Positions 35,872 through 48,447 of a stretch of DNA of 64,000 nucleotides are shown piece after piece. Source of the stretch: Nanobdellota archaeon (GTDB taxonomy: Archaea; Nanobdellota; Nanobdellia; Pacearchaeales; GW2011-AR1). The stretch spans positions 12,664 to 76,663 of the forward strand of contig JAUSKC010000017.1 in the NCBI GenBank assembly GCA_030647125.1, read 5' to 3'. Both the position numbers and the translations under genes were made by a program. The notes below the pieces were generated by a model. The model saw only the letters and a program-made list of their open reading frames with translations. It had not been told where the DNA came from and searched no databases. The first letter of the stretch is position 1. Each line of letters opens with the position of its first letter.

Positions 35872-36606
35872 ATGAAAAAACCATATGTAAAAAAATACGG
35901 CGAAGTGGCTGGTTTTTCTGTATGGATTATCGATGGAGAATATATCCGGGAAAATATAGATGAAGAATTCACAAATTTCGGACAGCATTTCAGATTCAGG
36001 TTTGTTCCAAAAAATGAGTTCTGGATTGATAAAACACGAAGAGGTGGAGAAGAACAATTTTACATTGATCATATGATAGCGGAGAACCGCATGATGGCTG
36101 AAGGCAAGGATTATTATTACGCTCTTAAAATGGCTGACAAAATAGAAAAAAGAGAACGCTCTACAGTTCGGCTTATAAAAAATTTAAAGAAATCACACAA
36201 AGAAAATGTAATAAAAAGAATTCATAAAAAACTTCTTAAAAAATACAGCAATAAGATAAATGTGTGGATTGTAAATGGGGACCTCGTACGTTCAATGTTT
36301 TTTATAGATTTTACCGAAGGCGGCCATGATATGGTATACAGTTTTATTCCAAAAAACGAGATATGGTTGGACGACGATCTGTCTGAAAAAGAAATGAAAT
36401 TTATCTTACTACATGAAATGCACGAAAGAAATTTGATGGCGCACGGATGGCCTTATGATTTAAAGTCACCAATTCGAGTTAAAAATAACAAGCCCGGCAA
36501 GATAACAAAATCCGCTCACAGGTCAGCAAGTGAAATTGAACATTTTGCAAGAGTTCATCCTGGAACAGTTGATAAATTCTTAAGAAAAGAAATGAAGAAA
36601 GAGTAA
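35872..36606 (+). CDS. internally duplicated protein with HxxxE / HEMHE motif (possible metal-dependent hydrolase), uncharacterised
   Basis: There are two repeats of roughly 110 aa:
- VWIIDGEYIR...FGQH...FVPKNEFWID...FYIDHMIAENRMM
- VWIVNGDLVR...GGHD...FIPKNEIWLD...FILLHEMHERNLM. Confidence 0.5.
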   Translation: MKKPYVKKYGEVAGFSVWIIDGEYIRENIDEEFTNFGQHFRFRFVPKNEFWIDKTRRGGEEQFYIDHMIAENRMMAEGKDYYYALKMADKIEKRERSTVRLIKNLKKSHKENVIKRIHKKLLKKYSNKINVWIVNGDLVRSMFFIDFTEGGHDMVYSFIPKNEIWLDDDLSEKEMKFILLHEMHERNLMAHGWPYDLKSPIRVKNNKPGKITKSAHRSASEIEHFARVHPGTVDKFLRKEMKKE

Positions 36607-37347: not shown

Positions 37348-37761
37348 ATGAAAATCAAAATAAAAAAATTAAATGAAGAAGCCGTTATCCCAAAATATTC
37401 CAAACATGGCGATGCTGCTATGGATGTTGTCGCTGTTTCAAAAAATGTTACAGAAAAATTTATTGAATATGGAACAGGATTGAGTTTTGAAGTTCCTGAA
37501 AATTATGTTATGTTGATTTTTCCTAGAAGCAGTGTTTCTAACAAAACTTTAAGCCAATGTAATTCCGTCGGTGTTCTTGACTCTGGATATAGGGGAGAAT
37601 TAAAAATTAGATTTTATAAAATTGGAAGTGAAGAATATGAAATCGGAGAAAGAGTTGCACAAATAATGGTTTTACCAAGGCCAGAAGTTGAATTTCAAGA
37701 GGTTGCCGAACTTTCGCCTACGGAAAGGGGTGATGGCGGATTTGGACATACTGGGAAATAG
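37348..37761 (+). CDS. dut: dUTP diphosphatase (trimeric dUTPase)
   Basis: IPKYSKHGDAAMDV, VLDSGYRGEL and a C-terminal RGDGGFGHTG motif. It starts directly after the nrdG stop. Confidence 0.85.
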   Translation: MKIKIKKLNEEAVIPKYSKHGDAAMDVVAVSKNVTEKFIEYGTGLSFEVPENYVMLIFPRSSVSNKTLSQCNSVGVLDSGYRGELKIRFYKIGSEEYEIGERVAQIMVLPRPEVEFQEVAELSPTERGDGGFGHTGK

Positions 37762-37808
37762 CTTTTTTGGAACAGGAATATTTTAAAACAGATTTTCTAT
37801 ATAATTTT

Positions 37809-38402
37809 ATGGCATATCTGCCGGATTTTATGATAAAAAGAGAAGTAAAAGAAGGGAGGATTATTATTGACCCTTATAATGAGAATGATGTTGGCCAAAA
37901 TTCTGTTGACATGCATCTAGGCCCTTTCTTGAAAACTTATAGAGATCACGCCCTTGATGTAAGAAAAGACCCTGAATCAATTAATTTTATTATTCCAGAA
38001 GAAGGATTAGAACTTCATCCGGGAAGACTTTACCTTGGCTCGACTTGGCAAAGAGCGGGCTCTGATTTTTATGTTCCTTCAATTGATGGTACAAGTACTG
38101 TTGGAAGATATGGGATTGTAGTTCATCAAACTGCTTCAAAAGGAAGTGTTGGTTTCAAGGCGAATTGGACTCTTGAAATAAGTGTCCAACAACCAATAAC
38201 AATATACGCTGGTATGAAGATTGCACAAGTATATTTTGAACAAATTCTTAGCCAGCCAGAAAATCTTTATGAAGGGGATTATGCAAATCAGACCGCAGAA
38301 CCACCAGTTCCAAAAAACCTTATGAGGCCAGGCAAGTTCCTTCCTTACAAGACATTTGCGGAAGTAATTGAAAAAAGCAAGAAGGTTAGAAAAATTGCTT
38401 GA
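37809..38402 (+). CDS. dcd: dCTP deaminase family protein
   Basis: LPDFMIKREVKEGRIIIDPY...SVDMHLG...VGRYGIVVH pattern. The start is set at ATG 37809 (MAYLPDF). The track begins at TTG 37767. Confidence 0.75.
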   Translation: MAYLPDFMIKREVKEGRIIIDPYNENDVGQNSVDMHLGPFLKTYRDHALDVRKDPESINFIIPEEGLELHPGRLYLGSTWQRAGSDFYVPSIDGTSTVGRYGIVVHQTASKGSVGFKANWTLEISVQQPITIYAGMKIAQVYFEQILSQPENLYEGDYANQTAEPPVPKNLMRPGKFLPYKTFAEVIEKSKKVRKIA

Positions 38403-38413
38403 TTCAAGAAAAA

Positions 38414-40048
38414 TTAATTTTTTAAAAAACTAAAATCAATTGGCTTGTCTTGTTTATATTCTATTTGTATTCCCGCTTTTCTTAATTGTCTAACGGTATC
38501 GGCTTTTTGCAATTCGGCACCGAGATAAGACATATGAAGCCAGTCACCAACTCTTTTTTCAGCTAGCCATCTTTGTGCTTGTCTTACTGATGAAAAAGTT
38601 TCTGATTCTAAAACAGCGCTGCTTGTTGGATGAAGGTGCTCAATATAAAAATTATTCTCTTGATTAATCGAAATTGAATAATTCCCCCTAGGATCTTGAT
38701 TTAATTTACTCGCTTGATGTAGCGTATAAGTTCTATTATCTATCAAAGGAAATTCTTCTAAAGTTTTTTTAGCATTCTCTAATTGACCTCCATAAAAATG
38801 GGCAGAGCCGGAAATTGTGCTGACTGAACCCAATTCTAAAGAAAGTCCTCTTTGTTCAAAATTTGGCTGAACTCTTTCAAGAACAAGTTTTTGCAATTCT
38901 CTTATTCCTAAAATATTTGCAGGCCAGCCCTCGAACATATCATGAGTCGCAAAATAATTAATAACATGTAATTTAAAACTATCATCTGAATCGGGGCTTA
39001 TAGCCATAAAATGGGCTCCTCTTAAGCAAGGGGTCTCTGGAGCATTCATATGTCGTGCCACATTGTAGGAGGTTGCAAAGGCCTTTCCGGTATGCTCGCC
39101 GCCTTTTTTGGATAATTTTTTCACAGCATAATCAATTTGATTTATTACTTGTCCATCAGCGCGATGAGCAAATAGCTCTTCACCATAACAATAAGCGGAA
39201 CCTTCCAAAGGGTCGCCGTGAGTAAATTGATGAACATATTTTGCAACGGACTTTTCAAATTCAGGAATTCGCCCAAAAATTTCAGGTTTAACCAAAGTTT
39301 TGTAGTCCTCATTTCCTGTAACAATTGCAAAAGTTCCTACAGTATCTTTTTTTGAGTCCTCTCCTTCCAAAATTTTTACTTTTCCAAACCGGATTATATT
39401 ATCTAAAATGTCCAACCAGACCTCTTCAACAGTCACTCCGCGGATCATATATCCCATGTCTTCAGAAGGAAATGTCTCAGCAGTTTCTTTTCCAAGAGGA
39501 TATCTCATTCCAAAGTCCCTCCAAGGATCTTTAGAAAGTGAATGTGAAATCTCCCTTATTGCTGTTGCGGCGCTTTCATAGTCACCTTCGCGAACATTTT
39601 CTCTTAAATCGTGCACTTTAATATTTTTTCTAAGGGCGTCAAACTCTTGCAAAGGGATTTCTTCAGGCAGAATCAAGACCTTTTTATCTATTCCTTTTAT
39701 AGTATAGTCATCGTTAAACCCGTTGTTAAAAAAATTATTTAACATTGATCCTGTATTTGTCGGGTCTCTTCCCCAAGTTACTAATCTTCTTATATTTGGA
39801 TTTGCAAGAAGTTCTCGCAAAATTAAATTAACACCTCTAGGAGAAAAACACTGGCCTATTGCAGAATATTGTGAAACGTCAAGACGTTTTGCTAAGGGCT
39901 GCCTTTCAGTCCATAAAGTTGTTATTGCAAGAGGAGAATCAACATTTCCAACACTAACTTCATTTCTATGATAAACAGGCCAAACGGAAACAAGCTCGTC
40001 CAAAGATAATTTTTCTGGATTTGGAATATCAAACTCTTTTTCAGACAT
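38414..40048 (-). CDS. ThyA-like (thymidylate synthase fold) domain flanked by an MtrA-like N-domain and a DUF4346-like C-terminal segment
   Basis: - N-terminal part: VGNVDSPLAITTLW...LANPNIRRLVTWGRD, which is MtrA-like as I recall that family.
- Middle part: YCYGEELF...INQIDYAVKKL...ETPCLRGAHF...THDMFEGWPANI, which parallels the ThyA YGxxl / dQi / PCl / RSxDxxxGxPxN motifs.
- C-terminal part: HMSYLGAELQKAD...YKQDKP. Confidence 0.5.
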   Translation of the reverse strand: MSEKEFDIPNPEKLSLDELVSVWPVYHRNEVSVGNVDSPLAITTLWTERQPLAKRLDVSQYSAIGQCFSPRGVNLILRELLANPNIRRLVTWGRDPTNTGSMLNNFFNNGFNDDYTIKGIDKKVLILPEEIPLQEFDALRKNIKVHDLRENVREGDYESAATAIREISHSLSKDPWRDFGMRYPLGKETAETFPSEDMGYMIRGVTVEEVWLDILDNIIRFGKVKILEGEDSKKDTVGTFAIVTGNEDYKTLVKPEIFGRIPEFEKSVAKYVHQFTHGDPLEGSAYCYGEELFAHRADGQVINQIDYAVKKLSKKGGEHTGKAFATSYNVARHMNAPETPCLRGAHFMAISPDSDDSFKLHVINYFATHDMFEGWPANILGIRELQKLVLERVQPNFEQRGLSLELGSVSTISGSAHFYGGQLENAKKTLEEFPLIDNRTYTLHQASKLNQDPRGNYSISINQENNFYIEHLHPTSSAVLESETFSSVRQAQRWLAEKRVGDWLHMSYLGAELQKADTVRQLRKAGIQIEYKQDKPIDFSFLKN

Positions 40049-40673: not shown

Positions 40674-41015
40674 ATGGTTTGGAAAATGCTACAGCAAGAA
40701 CTTGTACCGGAGTTGACGAACGGGGAATTTGAAAAGTTTATTCATGGTAACTTTGTCGTCGTAAGTTTCTTTAAGGACTGGTGTATGAATTGCTTAGTGA
40801 TGGATCCTATTGTTGAAGAAATAAGCGAGAAATTTTACGGAAAAATAAAATTTGCAAAAATTAATGTTGAAGACAACAAAGAAGCCGCAAAGAAATTTGG
40901 AGTTAATTCAACTCCGTGCTTCGCCATATTCAAGGACGGAAGCTTTTATGGGAAATTCTCAGGAACTTCATGCACTGAAGAATTTGAAGATAAGATAAAA
41001 GAGTTTTTGATATAA
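40674..41015 (+). CDS. thioredoxin-fold protein with atypical WCMNC active site
   Basis: VVVSFFKDWCMNCLVMDP...STPCFAIFKDG shows the thioredoxin layout with CxxC = CMNC. Confidence 0.7.
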   Translation: MVWKMLQQELVPELTNGEFEKFIHGNFVVVSFFKDWCMNCLVMDPIVEEISEKFYGKIKFAKINVEDNKEAAKKFGVNSTPCFAIFKDGSFYGKFSGTSCTEEFEDKIKEFLI

Positions 41016-44943: not shown

Positions 44944-47900
44944 ATGTCATTAAAATCAAGACCAGTAAAGAATAAAATTGGAGCAATAAGATTCAGCTTA
45001 GTTAATCCTGAACAAATTAAAAAGTTATCAGTTGCAAAGATTGTGACGCCAGAACTTTATGATATAGACGGGTATCCTGTCGACGGAGGATTAATGGATT
45101 TGAGGATGGGTGTTGTTGATCCTGGATTGAGATGTCGAACAGATGGAGCAGTTATAAAAGAATGTCCTGGATATCCTGGAAGCATTGACTTGGCAAGATC
45201 AGTAATACATTTGAAATATGTTCCGCTAATTGAAATGGGTTTGAGATGTTTCTGCCATGATTGTGGAAAATTAATGTTAAGTGAAAAAGACCTTGCTAAA
45301 TTCAGCCCCGCAAACAGAGCCAAAAAAGCAAAGGACTCAAAGAAATGTCCTTACTGCACCGCAAACCAAGAAAAAATCAAATTAGACAAACCAACAAGTT
45401 TCTATATAGGCAAAAAAAGAATTTTCCCTACGGAAATAAGAGAAATGCTTGTTAAAATTCCTGACGAGGATCTGAGAAAAATAGGAGTAAACCCTGAATC
45501 ATCAAGGCCCGAATGGTCTGTTTTAACGACGTTGTTGGTTCCTGCACCTACAATAAGACCATCAATTATTCTTGAAACAGGAGAAAGAAGTGAAGATGAT
45601 ATAACACATAAATTATCAGATATTATACGGGCTAATCAACGACTTTGGGAAAATTTGAATGCAGGAGCTCCTGAAGTTATAATTGAAGATTTATGGGACT
45701 TGCTTCAGTATCACATTACAACATTCTTTGACAATTCGGTTGCTCGTGTTCCTCCAGCACGTCACAGAAGCGGACAGCCATTAAAAACAATCACCGAAAG
45801 AATAAAGGGTAAAGAAGGAAGAATTAGAAAGAACTTGGCAGGTAAAAGAGTAAATTACTCTGCACGAACAGTTGTTTCACCAGATCCAAGAATTGAAATT
45901 AATGAAGTTGGTGTTCCTTATGAAATTGCAAAGATTGTTACCGTCGCTGAAGCGGTGACTGATTTAAACATTCACAAACTGAAAGAACTGGTTAATAAAG
46001 GAGAAGAATATCCCGGAGCAAATTATATTATAAGACCTGATGGAAAAAGAAAGAAAATAACCAGTGAATTAAAAGAAGAAATAATCAATGAACTTGTTAC
46101 TGGATATAAAGTTGAAAGACATTTGCAAGATGGGGACATAGTTTTATTCAATCGTCACCCTTCGCTGCACAAAGGAAGTTTAATGGCGCACTACGTAAAA
46201 GTTCTTCCTTCCAGAACTTTTAGATTGCATCCTGCAGTAACATTCCCTTACAACGCGGACTTCGACGGGGATGAAATGAATATTCACTCCCCACAGACGG
46301 AAGAAGCGCGCGCTGAAGCAAAGATTTTATTGGATGTAAAGAAAAATTTAATTTCCCCTAAGAACAATTCAAATTTAATCGGAACAAAAGCTGATTCTAT
46401 CACAGGAAATTATTTGCTTGGATTAAACGAGCTTGATAAGGCCTATGCTAATCAATTATTTTTCAAATCTGGAATTGACCTTAAAGTTTCCAAAAAAAGT
46501 ATTTCAGGATTGGAGATTTTCTCACACATAATTCCAAAAGGAACTAATTTTGAAAATGATTCTGTAAAGATCAAAGACGGGAAAATCATCTCCGGGCATA
46601 TTGACGGAAGCACATTTGGAGAAGAAGATGGAGAGTTGGTTAAAGAATTAGACAAAGCATTTGGAAGAACACAGACACTTGAGACATTAAAAAATATCTT
46701 TACTTTAGGTACAAATTACTTAACTGATAAAGGAATTACAATTTCTGTTGAAGATTTGGATTTGGATGAAAGTATTATTGAAAAAGGAAAGGAAATAATT
46801 GCACGCGCTGAGAAAAAAGTTGAAGAGTTAATTGCAAGTTATCACGACGGCACTTTAGAAATTATCCCAGGAAAAACATTTGAAGAAACAAGAGAATTGA
46901 AAATTCTTCAGACATTGAATGAAGTAAGAACAAAAATTGGAGAAGTTGTAAAGAAAGAATTCCCTGAAGATAATCCTGTTAGTAACATGATAAAATCGGG
47001 AGGGGGCGGAAATATCTTAAATATTACACAGATGGCTTCGTGCGTCGGGCAACAAGCATTTGCCGGCGGAAGAGTTGATATTGGTTATGTTGACAGAACA
47101 CTTTCATTTTTTAACAAAGGAGATTTATCCCCTCGTGCAAGAGGATTCATTCACAGTCCTTTCATAAAGGGTCTGCGTCCCGATGAATTTTTCTTCCAGG
47201 CAATTACAGGAAGAGATTCACTTATGGATACAGCGTTGAGAACTCCAAAGTCAGGATATCTTTACAGAAGATTGGCAAATGCGCTGCAGGATATAAGGGT
47301 AGAATACGATGGAACGGTAAGAGACAGTAATAATAATATAATTCAATTTATATATGGAGATGATGGAAAAGACGTTTCAAGGTTACATTTGAAAGAAAGC
47401 AAAGTTGATGCAGGCGAGGCAGTTGGAATTGTAACTGCGCAATCGTTCGGAGAATCATCGACGCAAATGGTCCTTAATACATTCCACATGGCAGGAGTTG
47501 CAGAAATGCAGGTTACTACAGGCCTTCCAAGAATTATAGAAATCTTTGATGCTCGTAAAAAACCTTCATCGCCAAAAATGGAAATTTACCTAGATAAGGA
47601 TTCAAACAATGAAAAAGATGCAAGAACCATCGCTGAAAAAATAAAAGAAGTAAAGCTTAAGGAAATTGCGTCGCATGTCAATTTGGACTTTGGCAATAAG
47701 ATTATTGAAATTGTTCTTGATAAAGAAGGAATGAGAAGAACACACACTAATTTGAAAAAAGTCGCAGAAAAATTAAAAGATCTTGGATACAAAGTCAACG
47801 AAAGAAGCGAGTCCATTGCTATTAACGCAAAAGATTCAACATTCAAGGAGATTTACAAAGTAAAGGAAAAACTTAAGGAAACAATTATTTCCGGACTAAA

Positions 47901-48447
47901 AGGAATCGAACAAATTTTAATTGTCAAGAGAGACAAGGACTTTGTAATTATAACTTTAGGAACTAATTTGAAAAAGATAATTGAGCTTAAAGAAGTCAAC
48001 ATTGAAAGGACAATTACAAATGATTTATATGAACTGGCAGAAGTTTTCGGAATTGAAGCCGCGCGACAATTGATAATAAATGAAATTGATCATACCTTAA
48101 GAAGTCAGGGTTTAGATATTGACATGAGACATTTGAAATTAATTGCAGACACTATGACAACTGCAGGCCTTGTTAAGGGAGTTACAAGAATGGGGATCAT
48201 TGCGCAGAAAGCATCGATACTTGCCAGAGCAACTTTTGAGACGCCAGTAAAACAATTCGTCAACGCCACCATAAAAGGTAACAGGGACTACTTAACAAGC
48301 GTCGTGGAGAATATTATACTAAATCAACCAATTCCCGTCGGAACAGGACTTCCAGGATTAGCAGTTCAAGTTGTTGGTTCTCTAGCAAAGAAAGATTCCG
48401 AAAAGAAAAAAGCTGATTCAAAGATTGTTGAGCAAGTTAATAAATAG
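44944..48447 (+). CDS. rpoA: DNA-directed RNA polymerase subunit A, with A' and A'' parts in one ORF
   Basis: 1167-aa ORF with these elements in one frame:
- NADFDGDEMN active site.
- Bridge helix (GRDSLMDTALRTPKSGYLYRRL).
- About 17 residues after YGDDG, the trigger-loop region that normally opens A'' (GEAVGIVTAQSFGESSTQMVLNTFHMAGV). Confidence 0.9.
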   Translation: MSLKSRPVKNKIGAIRFSLVNPEQIKKLSVAKIVTPELYDIDGYPVDGGLMDLRMGVVDPGLRCRTDGAVIKECPGYPGSIDLARSVIHLKYVPLIEMGLRCFCHDCGKLMLSEKDLAKFSPANRAKKAKDSKKCPYCTANQEKIKLDKPTSFYIGKKRIFPTEIREMLVKIPDEDLRKIGVNPESSRPEWSVLTTLLVPAPTIRPSIILETGERSEDDITHKLSDIIRANQRLWENLNAGAPEVIIEDLWDLLQYHITTFFDNSVARVPPARHRSGQPLKTITERIKGKEGRIRKNLAGKRVNYSARTVVSPDPRIEINEVGVPYEIAKIVTVAEAVTDLNIHKLKELVNKGEEYPGANYIIRPDGKRKKITSELKEEIINELVTGYKVERHLQDGDIVLFNRHPSLHKGSLMAHYVKVLPSRTFRLHPAVTFPYNADFDGDEMNIHSPQTEEARAEAKILLDVKKNLISPKNNSNLIGTKADSITGNYLLGLNELDKAYANQLFFKSGIDLKVSKKSISGLEIFSHIIPKGTNFENDSVKIKDGKIISGHIDGSTFGEEDGELVKELDKAFGRTQTLETLKNIFTLGTNYLTDKGITISVEDLDLDESIIEKGKEIIARAEKKVEELIASYHDGTLEIIPGKTFEETRELKILQTLNEVRTKIGEVVKKEFPEDNPVSNMIKSGGGGNILNITQMASCVGQQAFAGGRVDIGYVDRTLSFFNKGDLSPRARGFIHSPFIKGLRPDEFFFQAITGRDSLMDTALRTPKSGYLYRRLANALQDIRVEYDGTVRDSNNNIIQFIYGDDGKDVSRLHLKESKVDAGEAVGIVTAQSFGESSTQMVLNTFHMAGVAEMQVTTGLPRIIEIFDARKKPSSPKMEIYLDKDSNNEKDARTIAEKIKEVKLKEIASHVNLDFGNKIIEIVLDKEGMRRTHTNLKKVAEKLKDLGYKVNERSESIAINAKDSTFKEIYKVKEKLKETIISGLKGIEQILIVKRDKDFVIITLGTNLKKIIELKEVNIERTITNDLYELAEVFGIEAARQLIINEIDHTLRSQGLDIDMRHLKLIADTMTTAGLVKGVTRMGIIAQKASILARATFETPVKQFVNATIKGNRDYLTSVVENIILNQPIPVGTGLPGLAVQVVGSLAKKDSEKKKADSKIVEQVNK

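Follow-up and report, generated by a model that had tools for sequence, protein, structure and literature searches.

Thymidylate synthesis is an essential process and a classic drug target, and two forms of it are recognized, one that pairs the thymidylate synthase (TS) ThyA with the dihydrofolate reductase FolA and one that uses ThyX. Here we describe a three-domain protein, P0001, that on balance probably serves as the only TS of an ultra-small archaeon. Its gene lies in a 64,000-nucleotide stretch from a Nanobdellota archaeon (GenBank assembly GCA_030647125.1, contig JAUSKC010000017.1, positions 12,664 to 76,663 of the forward strand), the whole of which was analyzed and is called the window below. 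The open reading frame (ORF) occupies window positions 38414..40048 on the minus strand, from ATG through the stop codon, and encodes 544 amino acids (aa) arranged as an MtrA-like domain, a TS core, and a DUF4346 tail. A first-pass annotation made from the letters of the window had placed a 544-aa ORF at this interval; the ORF and every motif that it quoted are present, but the minus strand had gone unstated, and the plus-strand frame across 38414-40048 is broken by many stops.

In the classical enzyme (EC 2.1.1.45, PF00303; residue positions are those of E. coli ThyA), C146 is the nucleophile, D169 contacts the pterin, N177 confers specificity for uracil, and H207 and Y209 engage the sugar 3'-OH. 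The phosphate of deoxyuridine monophosphate (dUMP) is bound by R166, R21, and the R126/R127 pair of the partner subunit. The residue that specifies cytosine in T4 deoxycytidine monophosphate (dCMP) hydroxymethylase is an Asp, D179, which stands at the ThyA N177 position. P0001 shares with ThyA the fold (Foldseek E ∼1e-11, VIA-align Z 17-19), the nucleophilic Cys, the equivalents of D169, N177, H207, and Y209, and the YxYG motif. It differs from ThyA in its shorter core, in having Gly321, Lys322, and Ala367 at phosphate-Arg sites and no R21 equivalent that can be aligned with confidence, in the addition of an N-terminal domain of 180 residues and a C-terminal domain of 100 residues, and in that carriers of the fusion mostly lack FolA and GlyA.

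The best NCBIfam match of P0001 is TIGR03283, the methanogen-type short archaeal TS of about 220 aa represented by M. jannaschii MJ0757 (E 2e-23, 82.9 bits, residues 201-421). The score lies below the equivalog cut-off of 174.55 bits, which makes TIGR03283 the nearest family and not, by the NCBI rule, one of which P0001 is a member. Short archaeal TS proteins are unfused, unlike P0001, and their cofactor chemistry has scarcely been followed up experimentally (PMC9931769, PMC9012536). The N-terminal domain shares a Rossmann-like fold and an 'NPNIR...G' segment with MtrA of the methyl-tetrahydromethanopterin:coenzyme M methyltransferase and its cytoplasmic homologues (5laa, 5l8x), in which His84 is the cobalt ligand and Glu54 its hydrogen-bond partner (PMC4915002); both residues are gone in the TS fusions, and P0001 has no membrane anchor. 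The tail recurs in dihydropteroate synthase (DHPS)-like proteins of methanogens and Heimdallarchaeota (DUF6513 + Pterin_bind + DUF4346), where DUF4346 also stands behind a pterin-binding catalytic domain, although that domain is a triose-phosphate isomerase (TIM) barrel and not a TS, and DUF6513 has no detectable MtrA-like homology (the idea that it is a diverged MtrA-like domain found no support, with an hhalign probability of 0.4%). The bifunctional dihydrofolate reductase (DHFR)-TS proteins of protozoa and plants (3hbb, 8dae) also fuse a TS to a domain that serves its cofactor. The likeness is an analogy of design; their partner is a known dihydrofolate reductase, to which the partner domains of P0001 are unrelated.

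In single-sequence Pfam searches, all three domains of P0001 score only marginally above their cut-offs: PF04208 (MtrA) at residues 21-167 with 26.6 bits against 25, PF00303 (Thymidylat_synt) at residues 287-435 with 25.3 bits against 24.3, and PF14251 (PterinBD-DUF4346) at residues 451-528 with 31.3 bits against 29.6. The domain assignments are nevertheless firm because of a family profile built from 110 full-length relatives (alignment A1), which matches ThyA chains in the PDB at E values down to 1.9e-26 and the MtrA structure 5laa at E 4.9e-21. An AlphaFold2 model built on the same alignment is confident throughout (predicted local distance difference test score (pLDDT) 94.2, predicted template modeling (TM) score 0.87). 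With this model as the query, Foldseek recovered ThyA from E. coli, Brucella, M. tuberculosis, and a virus (varicella-zoster virus) with TM scores of 0.63-0.67 over ∼241 columns.

The model was also searched with VIA-align against 48,161 chains. The Rossmann-type MtrA-like domain (residues 16-178; 39515..40003, minus strand) aligns to 5laa_B with Z 19.0 and 2.4 Å root mean square deviation (rmsd), 153 of 159 residues being aligned. The TS-fold core, of the short methanogen-like type (residues 195-441; 38726..39466, minus strand), gives Z values of 17-22 across TS-fold chains, among them 9iqc_A (21.9), the CMP hydroxymethylase MilA (20.2), Brucella ThyA (19.0), and T4 dCMP hydroxymethylase (16.9). 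The DUF4346 tail was delimited by PF14251 and a domain alignment (A2) to residues 448-540 (38429..38707, minus strand); for the tail region as a whole (∼442-544), VIA-align found no clear solved relative, only unrelated chains (ribosomal proteins) at Z ∼7. The three assignments made in the first-pass annotation, a ThyA-like center between an N-terminal MtrA domain and a C-terminal DUF4346 segment, are thus upheld: a ThyA fold was found by Pfam, the family profile, Foldseek, and VIA-align alike, the MtrA assignment by PF04208, the profile match to 5laa, and VIA-align, and DUF4346 by a PF14251 score above its cut-off.

Residue states were read from a profile alignment to L. casei ThyA together with the fusion-family alignments, and all codons are on the minus strand. 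By both alignments, Cys341 of a Pro340-Cys341 pair (codon 39026..39028) falls at C146, so that the Cys singled out in the first-pass annotation does align with the ThyA nucleophile, and Asn378 (38915..38917) falls at N177. Cys and Asn are kept at these positions in the eight closest relatives of P0001 and in the other fusions. Asp370 at the D169 position, His417 and Tyr419 at the H207/Y209 positions (Ser-Ala-His417-Phe-Tyr419), and the Tyr286-x-Tyr288-Gly match to the YxYG of the Y94 region are also kept in the eight relatives and are nearly invariant in the remaining fusions.

At the phosphate-binding sites, the PYSRR of ThyA aligns to H-T-G321-K322 in P0001, and the profile and family alignments agree on this replacement of R126/R127 by Gly321-Lys322 (39083..39088), which the first-pass annotation had reported as TGK in place of SRR. 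The R126 position holds Gly in P0001 and its eight closest relatives, and every other fusion examined has Arg or Lys there; the R127 position is Lys in P0001, Arg in the eight relatives, and variable (R, A, S, N, Q) elsewhere. A further loss, overlooked in that annotation, was found in the family alignments at the R166 position, which is Ala367 in P0001 (38948..38950), Lys in the eight relatives, and Arg in all other fusions examined; no other sequence examined has Ala there. The same alignments place in P0001 alone an Arg, Arg343 (39020..39022), two residues past the nucleophile, at a position that is Val in its subclade. Arg343 is a candidate compensating charge and may mark a shift of positive charge that makes up for the lost Arg residues. 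We read this as a phosphate pocket that has been rearranged, not lost.

A phmmer search of 1.84 billion cluster representatives returned 749 proteins at E<=1e-3, of which 108 reach E<=1e-30, and most of the best 150 of the 749 matches are 460-540 aa long and align end to end. Those family members to which a source gives a name are called 'thymidylate synthase' or 'hypothetical protein,' the public-record labels on the close relatives of the protein are Candidatus Nanoarchaeia, Woesearchaeota, Aenigmarchaeota, and Diapherotrites, and a literature search found no papers on the MtrA-TS-DUF4346 fusion. The fusion architecture is a widespread existing family, unstudied and not unique to P0001. Among 301 species-level genomes sampled from the host phylum, 37 encode a full-length fusion (E<1e-110), a count that takes in the source genome (G000) and G243 (unpublished; G243 was left out of the alignments and trees). 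The sampled genomes also encode TS cores that stand alone (202-236 aa), canonical ThyA (∼300 aa), and lone DUF4346 proteins (∼100-140 aa). Two further proteins of 446-448 aa (L040:1926-3263, L041:1926-3269) have the MtrA-like domain and TS core without DUF4346; they carry His at the D169 position ('FRSHH') and an insertion ahead of the Asn.

P0001 and its eight closest relatives (P0002-P0008 and L042) form a subclade whose members are 49-54% identical to P0001, compared with 24-33% between these nine sequences and the other fusions. The L042 protein is the same as P0003 or almost so. A TS-domain phylogeny was built by maximum likelihood with FastTree, with canonical ThyA from the host phylum as the root, and sampled 35 randomly chosen full-length fusions, the fusion ORFs of fetched loci, and 17 stand-alone cores; L014 and forms lacking the core were left out. 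In this tree, the nine sequences are monophyletic (support 1.0) and nested in a clade made up only of fusions, with weak to moderate backbone support (0.0-0.88), and the stand-alone 202-236-aa cores of the phylum are the sister group to the fusion cores. The position of the nine sequences indicates that the Arg losses are derived and belong to a fast-evolving lineage. The loss of the Arg-Arg pair noted in the first-pass annotation is therefore real in P0001 but local to a small subclade, as SRR and RSxD persist in most relatives. All nine subclade sequences retain the residues for catalysis and base specificity, and their catalytic motifs are identical, which argues for continued selection on catalysis.

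The source genome comprises 640 kb in 26 contigs, with the window on contig 11, and the window is AT-rich (G+C ∼34%); most genomes of the host phylum in the 301-genome sample are 0.5-1.9 Mb. When the family profile was run against a six-frame translation of the source genome, P0001 was the sole match. Profile searches of that genome found no other PF00303 protein and no ThyX (PF02511), and a thymidine kinase was not found either. The paralog that the first-pass annotation had raised as a possibility, a canonical thyA or a thyX elsewhere, was thus not found in this genome. A second subclade genome (G301, the genome of L042) likewise yielded no ThyX and no second family match.

Across the phylum, 147 of the 301 genomes have ThyX; these comprise just 3 of the 37 fusion carriers and 144 of the other 264. 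FolA is found in 100 of the 301 genomes and in 9 of the 37 with a fusion, at least one of which (G161) has a separate thyA-folA-glyA cluster elsewhere; 28 of the 37 lack it. These co-occurrence counts are not corrected for relatedness. Within the taxonomic family of the source genome (13 other genomes), the six genomes with ThyX, which are all the ThyX carriers there, have no TS-family match, five combine FolA with a weak family-profile match, and one (G218) has a weak match and no FolA or ThyX that we could find; the source genome and G241 have the fusion with neither ThyX nor FolA. The near-exclusive distribution of fusion and ThyX is the pattern expected of functional equivalents, and the best-supported reading is that the fusion family stands in for both ThyX and ThyA with FolA in ultra-small archaea. 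For P0001, we conclude that the gene probably encodes the only TS of its organism. The suggestion that it might be a different pyrimidine-modifying enzyme, also made in the first-pass annotation, becomes less likely given that Asn378 and Asp370 are kept, that the family alternates with ThyX and with ThyA plus FolA, and that its genes neighbor tmk, dcd, and dut.

As a separate observation on this phylum, ThyX is in most of its genomes a single ORF of ∼450-600 aa with two tandem Thy1 domains (for example, G298:C1:247298-248575 and G035:C147:23890-25155).

Several observations weigh against assigning TS activity to P0001. From mutagenesis of the L. casei and E. coli enzymes, R166 is regarded as the sole irreplaceable phosphate-binding Arg of classical ThyA, and here it is Ala. 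The stem of the subclade measures 1.2 substitutions/site, compared with 0.03-0.16 for the nodes above it, a length that fits a change of substrate or decay. A search for thymidylate kinase (PF02223) in the source genome gave only 17.9 bits, a profile made from the tmk genes beside other fusions found nothing convincing there, and the second subclade genome likewise yielded no detectable thymidylate kinase; tmk is also undetected in a 98% complete genome whose fusion has the normal Arg residues (G044), although G241 and G197 have it beside the fusion. Neither a source of methylene-pterin nor FolA or GlyA was found, so the classical ThyA cycle, which consumes methylene-folate and releases dihydrofolate for recycling by FolA and GlyA, cannot run on the genes seen. 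In several genomes, a fusion coexists with a separate TS of 220 aa, and the two forms may not be wholly equivalent. The source genome is only 88.6% complete, for which reason its gene searches are read as "not found" and not as "absent," and the literature search found no measured activity for any member of the fusion family.

The one-carbon (C1) supply of the source genome was searched for more widely. Serine hydroxymethyltransferase (SHMT, GlyA), FolA, FolD, GcvT, Fae, Pterin_bind proteins (FolP, MtrH), Mch, and methylenetetrahydrofolate reductase (MTHFR) were not found in it, a result with which the non-folate C1 carrier proposed in the first-pass annotation is compatible. Formaldehyde from a reverse ribulose monophosphate pathway is unsupported as a C1 source, as the best score for hexulose-phosphate synthase (Hps) was 30 bits, where the cut-off is 200, and no Fae was found. 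A role of the fusion as a replacement for GlyA was rejected, because the share of genomes with SHMT is no lower among fusion carriers (14 of 37) than in the whole sample (95 of 301).

The two domains that flank the TS core offer a view of how the cofactor might be handled. In the MtrA-like domain of P0001, the His84 position is Thr or a gap (the 'GH' is gapped in the phmmer alignment to 5laa) and the 'TEN' that contains Glu54 reads 'FSP'; the consensus of the TS-fusion family at the Glu and His sites is 'LYS' and 'SG,' with Ser or Thr at the His site. With both residues missing, the domain is probably no longer a His-on cobalamin protein, and His-on cobalamin binding was rejected as its likely function. 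DUF4346 occurs in three settings: behind a TS core, as in P0001; behind the DHPS-like TIM barrel; and directly behind a strong MtrA domain (P0193, P0191, P0198, P0201, P0204), as in the 268-aa P0193, whose MtrA match reaches 185 bits. The cobalt-ligand His and the Glu of 'TEN' are both kept in P0193, P0191, P0201, and P0204, which are metagenome proteins of 268-406 aa and presumably real corrinoid proteins; P0198 keeps the Glu, and no His aligns at its ligand position. We know of no described function for such direct MtrA-DUF4346 proteins. Their His and Glu point to a derivation of the module from a corrinoid protein whose cobalt ligands are gone in the TS fusions.

Residues outside the core are also conserved. 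Trp46 in 'TLWT' and, in the tail, Asp452, Gly455, His505, Glu512, and Gln533 are invariant in the fusion family; alignment A2 shows DPRG, His505, Glu512, and Gln533-Asp534 as family-invariant, with invariant D, G, H, A, and Q columns. This pattern suggests a conserved ligand site in the flanking module. From the association of DUF4346 with pterin enzymes and the lack of FolA, the MtrA-like/DUF4346 module may help to bind or regenerate a scavenged pterin cofactor, a role that would explain why carriers do without FolA.

One family of the phylum has proteins of 379-391 aa in which the TS core is deleted (L035:1256-2392, L036:1980-3152, L037:2001-3167, L038:1989-3161, and L039, the last being 387 aa on the minus strand). 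They retain the MtrA-like domain, DUF4346, and both end pieces of the TS domain, and the deletion removes the catalytic core including the Cys. A separate 220-aa TS is present in all five of their genomes, and all five loci adjoin an AAA_18-type kinase gene, those of L036 and L037 also tmk. The existence of these coreless proteins implies that the module has a life of its own.

The neighborhood of the P0001 gene is rich in functions of deoxynucleotide metabolism. The deoxynucleoside triphosphate cluster of the window comprises nrdA, nrdB, nrdD, nrdG, dut, dcd, the fusion, a 148-aa ORF, and thioredoxin. On the plus strand, dut (37348..37761), annotated as a dUTPase and thus a supplier of dUMP, is followed by a dCTP deaminase-like gene, dcd (37767..38402), that is convergent with the fusion. 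The 148-aa ORF, P0219 (40106..40552, minus strand), lies 57 bp upstream of the fusion on the same strand, and the thioredoxin gene (40674..41015, plus strand) is divergent from this pair. The same order is found at L042 (Candidatus Nanoarchaeia, DATETG010000001.1), which reads thioredoxin, small ORF, fusion, dcd, and a dcd/dut-like gene, so that the synteny with dcd and the position of thioredoxin are both kept. The small ORF of L042 (L042:2214-2690, 158 aa) is a homologue of P0219 at the same position (29% identity, E 1e-14). P0219 had no match in Pfam, NCBIfam, or PDB sequences and no usable Atlas match, a word search returned no further homologue, and a profile of the two small proteins found nothing beside other fusions; its AlphaFold model has a pLDDT of 42. 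A search of the source genome for ParB_N likewise gave no match. To judge from where its gene lies, P0219 may be a partner specific to the Arg-poor subclade.

Within ±1.5-2 kb of 38 fetched fusion loci, the neighbors include thymidylate kinase (13), an AAA_18-type small kinase (10), dCTP deaminase (5), dUTPase (3), and 5'-deoxynucleotidase (3); P0219 sits upstream of the fusion where tmk sits in L002. In one family, the fusion adjoins a gene for an ATP:corrinoid adenosyltransferase (CobA/CobO/BtuR; L019:3043-3537, with homologous ORFs in L021 and L023), an adjacency that may be fortuitous, may reflect a connection with a B12-dependent ribonucleotide reductase, or may hint at continued handling of a corrinoid by the MtrA-like domain. 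Elsewhere in the window, a 244-aa ORF between nrdD and nrdG (35872-36606, plus strand) has no Pfam match and only noise-level NCBIfam matches, and one ORF of 1167 aa (44944-48447, plus strand) encodes the whole of RNA polymerase subunit A, with Rpb1 domains 1-5 and hence with A' and A'' fused.

If P0001 is a TS, Cys341 would attack the uracil ring of dUMP at C6, and the dUMP would be supplied through the neighboring dcd and dut genes. Selection of uracil would fall to Asn378, the 3'-OH of the deoxyribose would be held by His417 and Tyr419, and Asp370 would bind the donor, a methylene-tetrahydropterin, by its pterin ring. The enzyme would consist of a short archaeal-type core permanently joined to a two-part module of MtrA-like domain and DUF4346, and its pocket would have been rebuilt in the subclade by the changes of R126 to Gly and R166 to Lys and, in P0001, by the change of R166 to Ala and R127 to Lys with the new Arg343 near the nucleophile. 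We infer that the product is deoxythymidine monophosphate (dTMP), that the C1 carrier is a scavenged pterin, that the flanks handle this cofactor, and that Arg343 compensates for the lost charge. A more far-reaching version, which we put forward only tentatively and consider rather doubtful, is that the module is a built-in cofactor station that derives from a corrinoid/pterin methyl-transfer system. The fusion would then be a TS that works without FolA, GlyA, or a folate cycle, a third route beside ThyA with FolA and ThyX, and the rebuilt pocket of the subclade would work with P0219 and possibly on deoxyuridine in another phosphorylation state, which would account for the failure to find a thymidylate kinase.

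That last element can also be taken as an explanation in itself, in which the subclade enzyme methylates the uracil C5 of a different phosphorylation state, for example, deoxyuridine diphosphate (dUDP) from the neighboring class I ribonucleotide reductase. A dUDP substrate would explain why the phosphate pocket is wider and less cationic and also why no thymidylate kinase was found. It would agree with the Gly at R126 and the Lys or Ala at R166 in the subclade alone, with the presence of nrdAB in the same cluster, with the failure to find a PF02223 thymidylate kinase in either subclade genome when tmk is the commonest neighbor of other fusions, and with P0219 in the upstream slot that tmk holds in L002. 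However, dut and dcd, which make dUMP, adjoin the gene in both subclade loci, and neither subclade genome is known to be complete. The failure to detect tmk in G044, which is nearly complete and whose fusion has the normal Arg residues, shows that this absence is not specific to the subclade. To our knowledge, no ThyA-family enzyme uses a diphosphate. We consider a dUDP substrate unlikely.

Somewhat less likely still is that P0001 is a TS-superfamily enzyme that modifies C5 by some reaction other than reductive methylation, such as a uracil-nucleotide hydroxymethylase. Hydroxymethylation makes no dihydropterin and hence needs no FolA, which is in keeping with the 28 of 37 carriers that lack it. 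The TS core is as close to MilA and to T4 dCMP hydroxymethylase as to ThyA by VIA-align (Z 20.2, 16.9, and 19.0, respectively), and the cofactor chemistry of the short archaeal enzymes is poorly studied (PMC9931769, PMC9012536). On the other hand, the cell requires dTMP and no other maker of it was found in the genome, fusion and ThyX are nearly mutually exclusive across the phylum, and tmk, the commonest neighbor, points to a thymidylate product.

It is comparably improbable that P0001 is a decaying or non-catalytic relic, with thymine nucleotides drawn from the host and the protein kept for a structural or regulatory role of its flanks. The Ala at the R166 position, unique among the sequences examined, the long branch, the coreless 379-391-aa versions in one family, and a heavily host-dependent genome of ∼0.64 Mb would all fit such a relic. 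Yet the frame is open over 544 codons, and the Cys, Asp, Asn, His, and Tyr together with most TS motifs are identical across nine sequences that are only ∼50% identical overall, which implies purifying selection on the active site. In addition, synteny with dcd, dut, and trx is conserved, no thymidine kinase that could support salvage was found, and all five coreless genomes keep a separate TS, whereas none was found in the source genome. A flavin-dependent pyrimidine hydroxylase like PDB 9iqc ('monooxygenase dependent on riboflavin, with dCMP and FAD'), on which our literature search found no papers that touch the fusion family, nor any on flavin-monooxygenase TS proteins that do so, is the top VIA-align match (9iqc_A, Z 21.9, rmsd 2.0, 202 residues) but was rejected as very improbable, because sequence identity is only 11%, the Z margin over ThyA and MilA is small, and P0001 keeps both Asn378, which specifies uracil and not cytosine, and the pterin contact Asp370.

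With the fusion as the probable TS of these cells, thymidylate synthesis would have a third, three-domain form in one ultra-small archaeal phylum, an alternative to ThyA with FolA and to ThyX that mostly operates without dihydrofolate reductase. P0001 itself is a natural experiment on the extent to which the clamp that ThyA uses for the dUMP phosphate tolerates rebuilding. The source of the C1 unit and reductant of the fusion would bear on the cofactor chemistry of the short archaeal TS proteins and would show how minimal symbionts sustain DNA synthesis. If the flanking module does act as a cofactor station, the family would represent a mechanistically distinct third solution to thymidylate synthesis.

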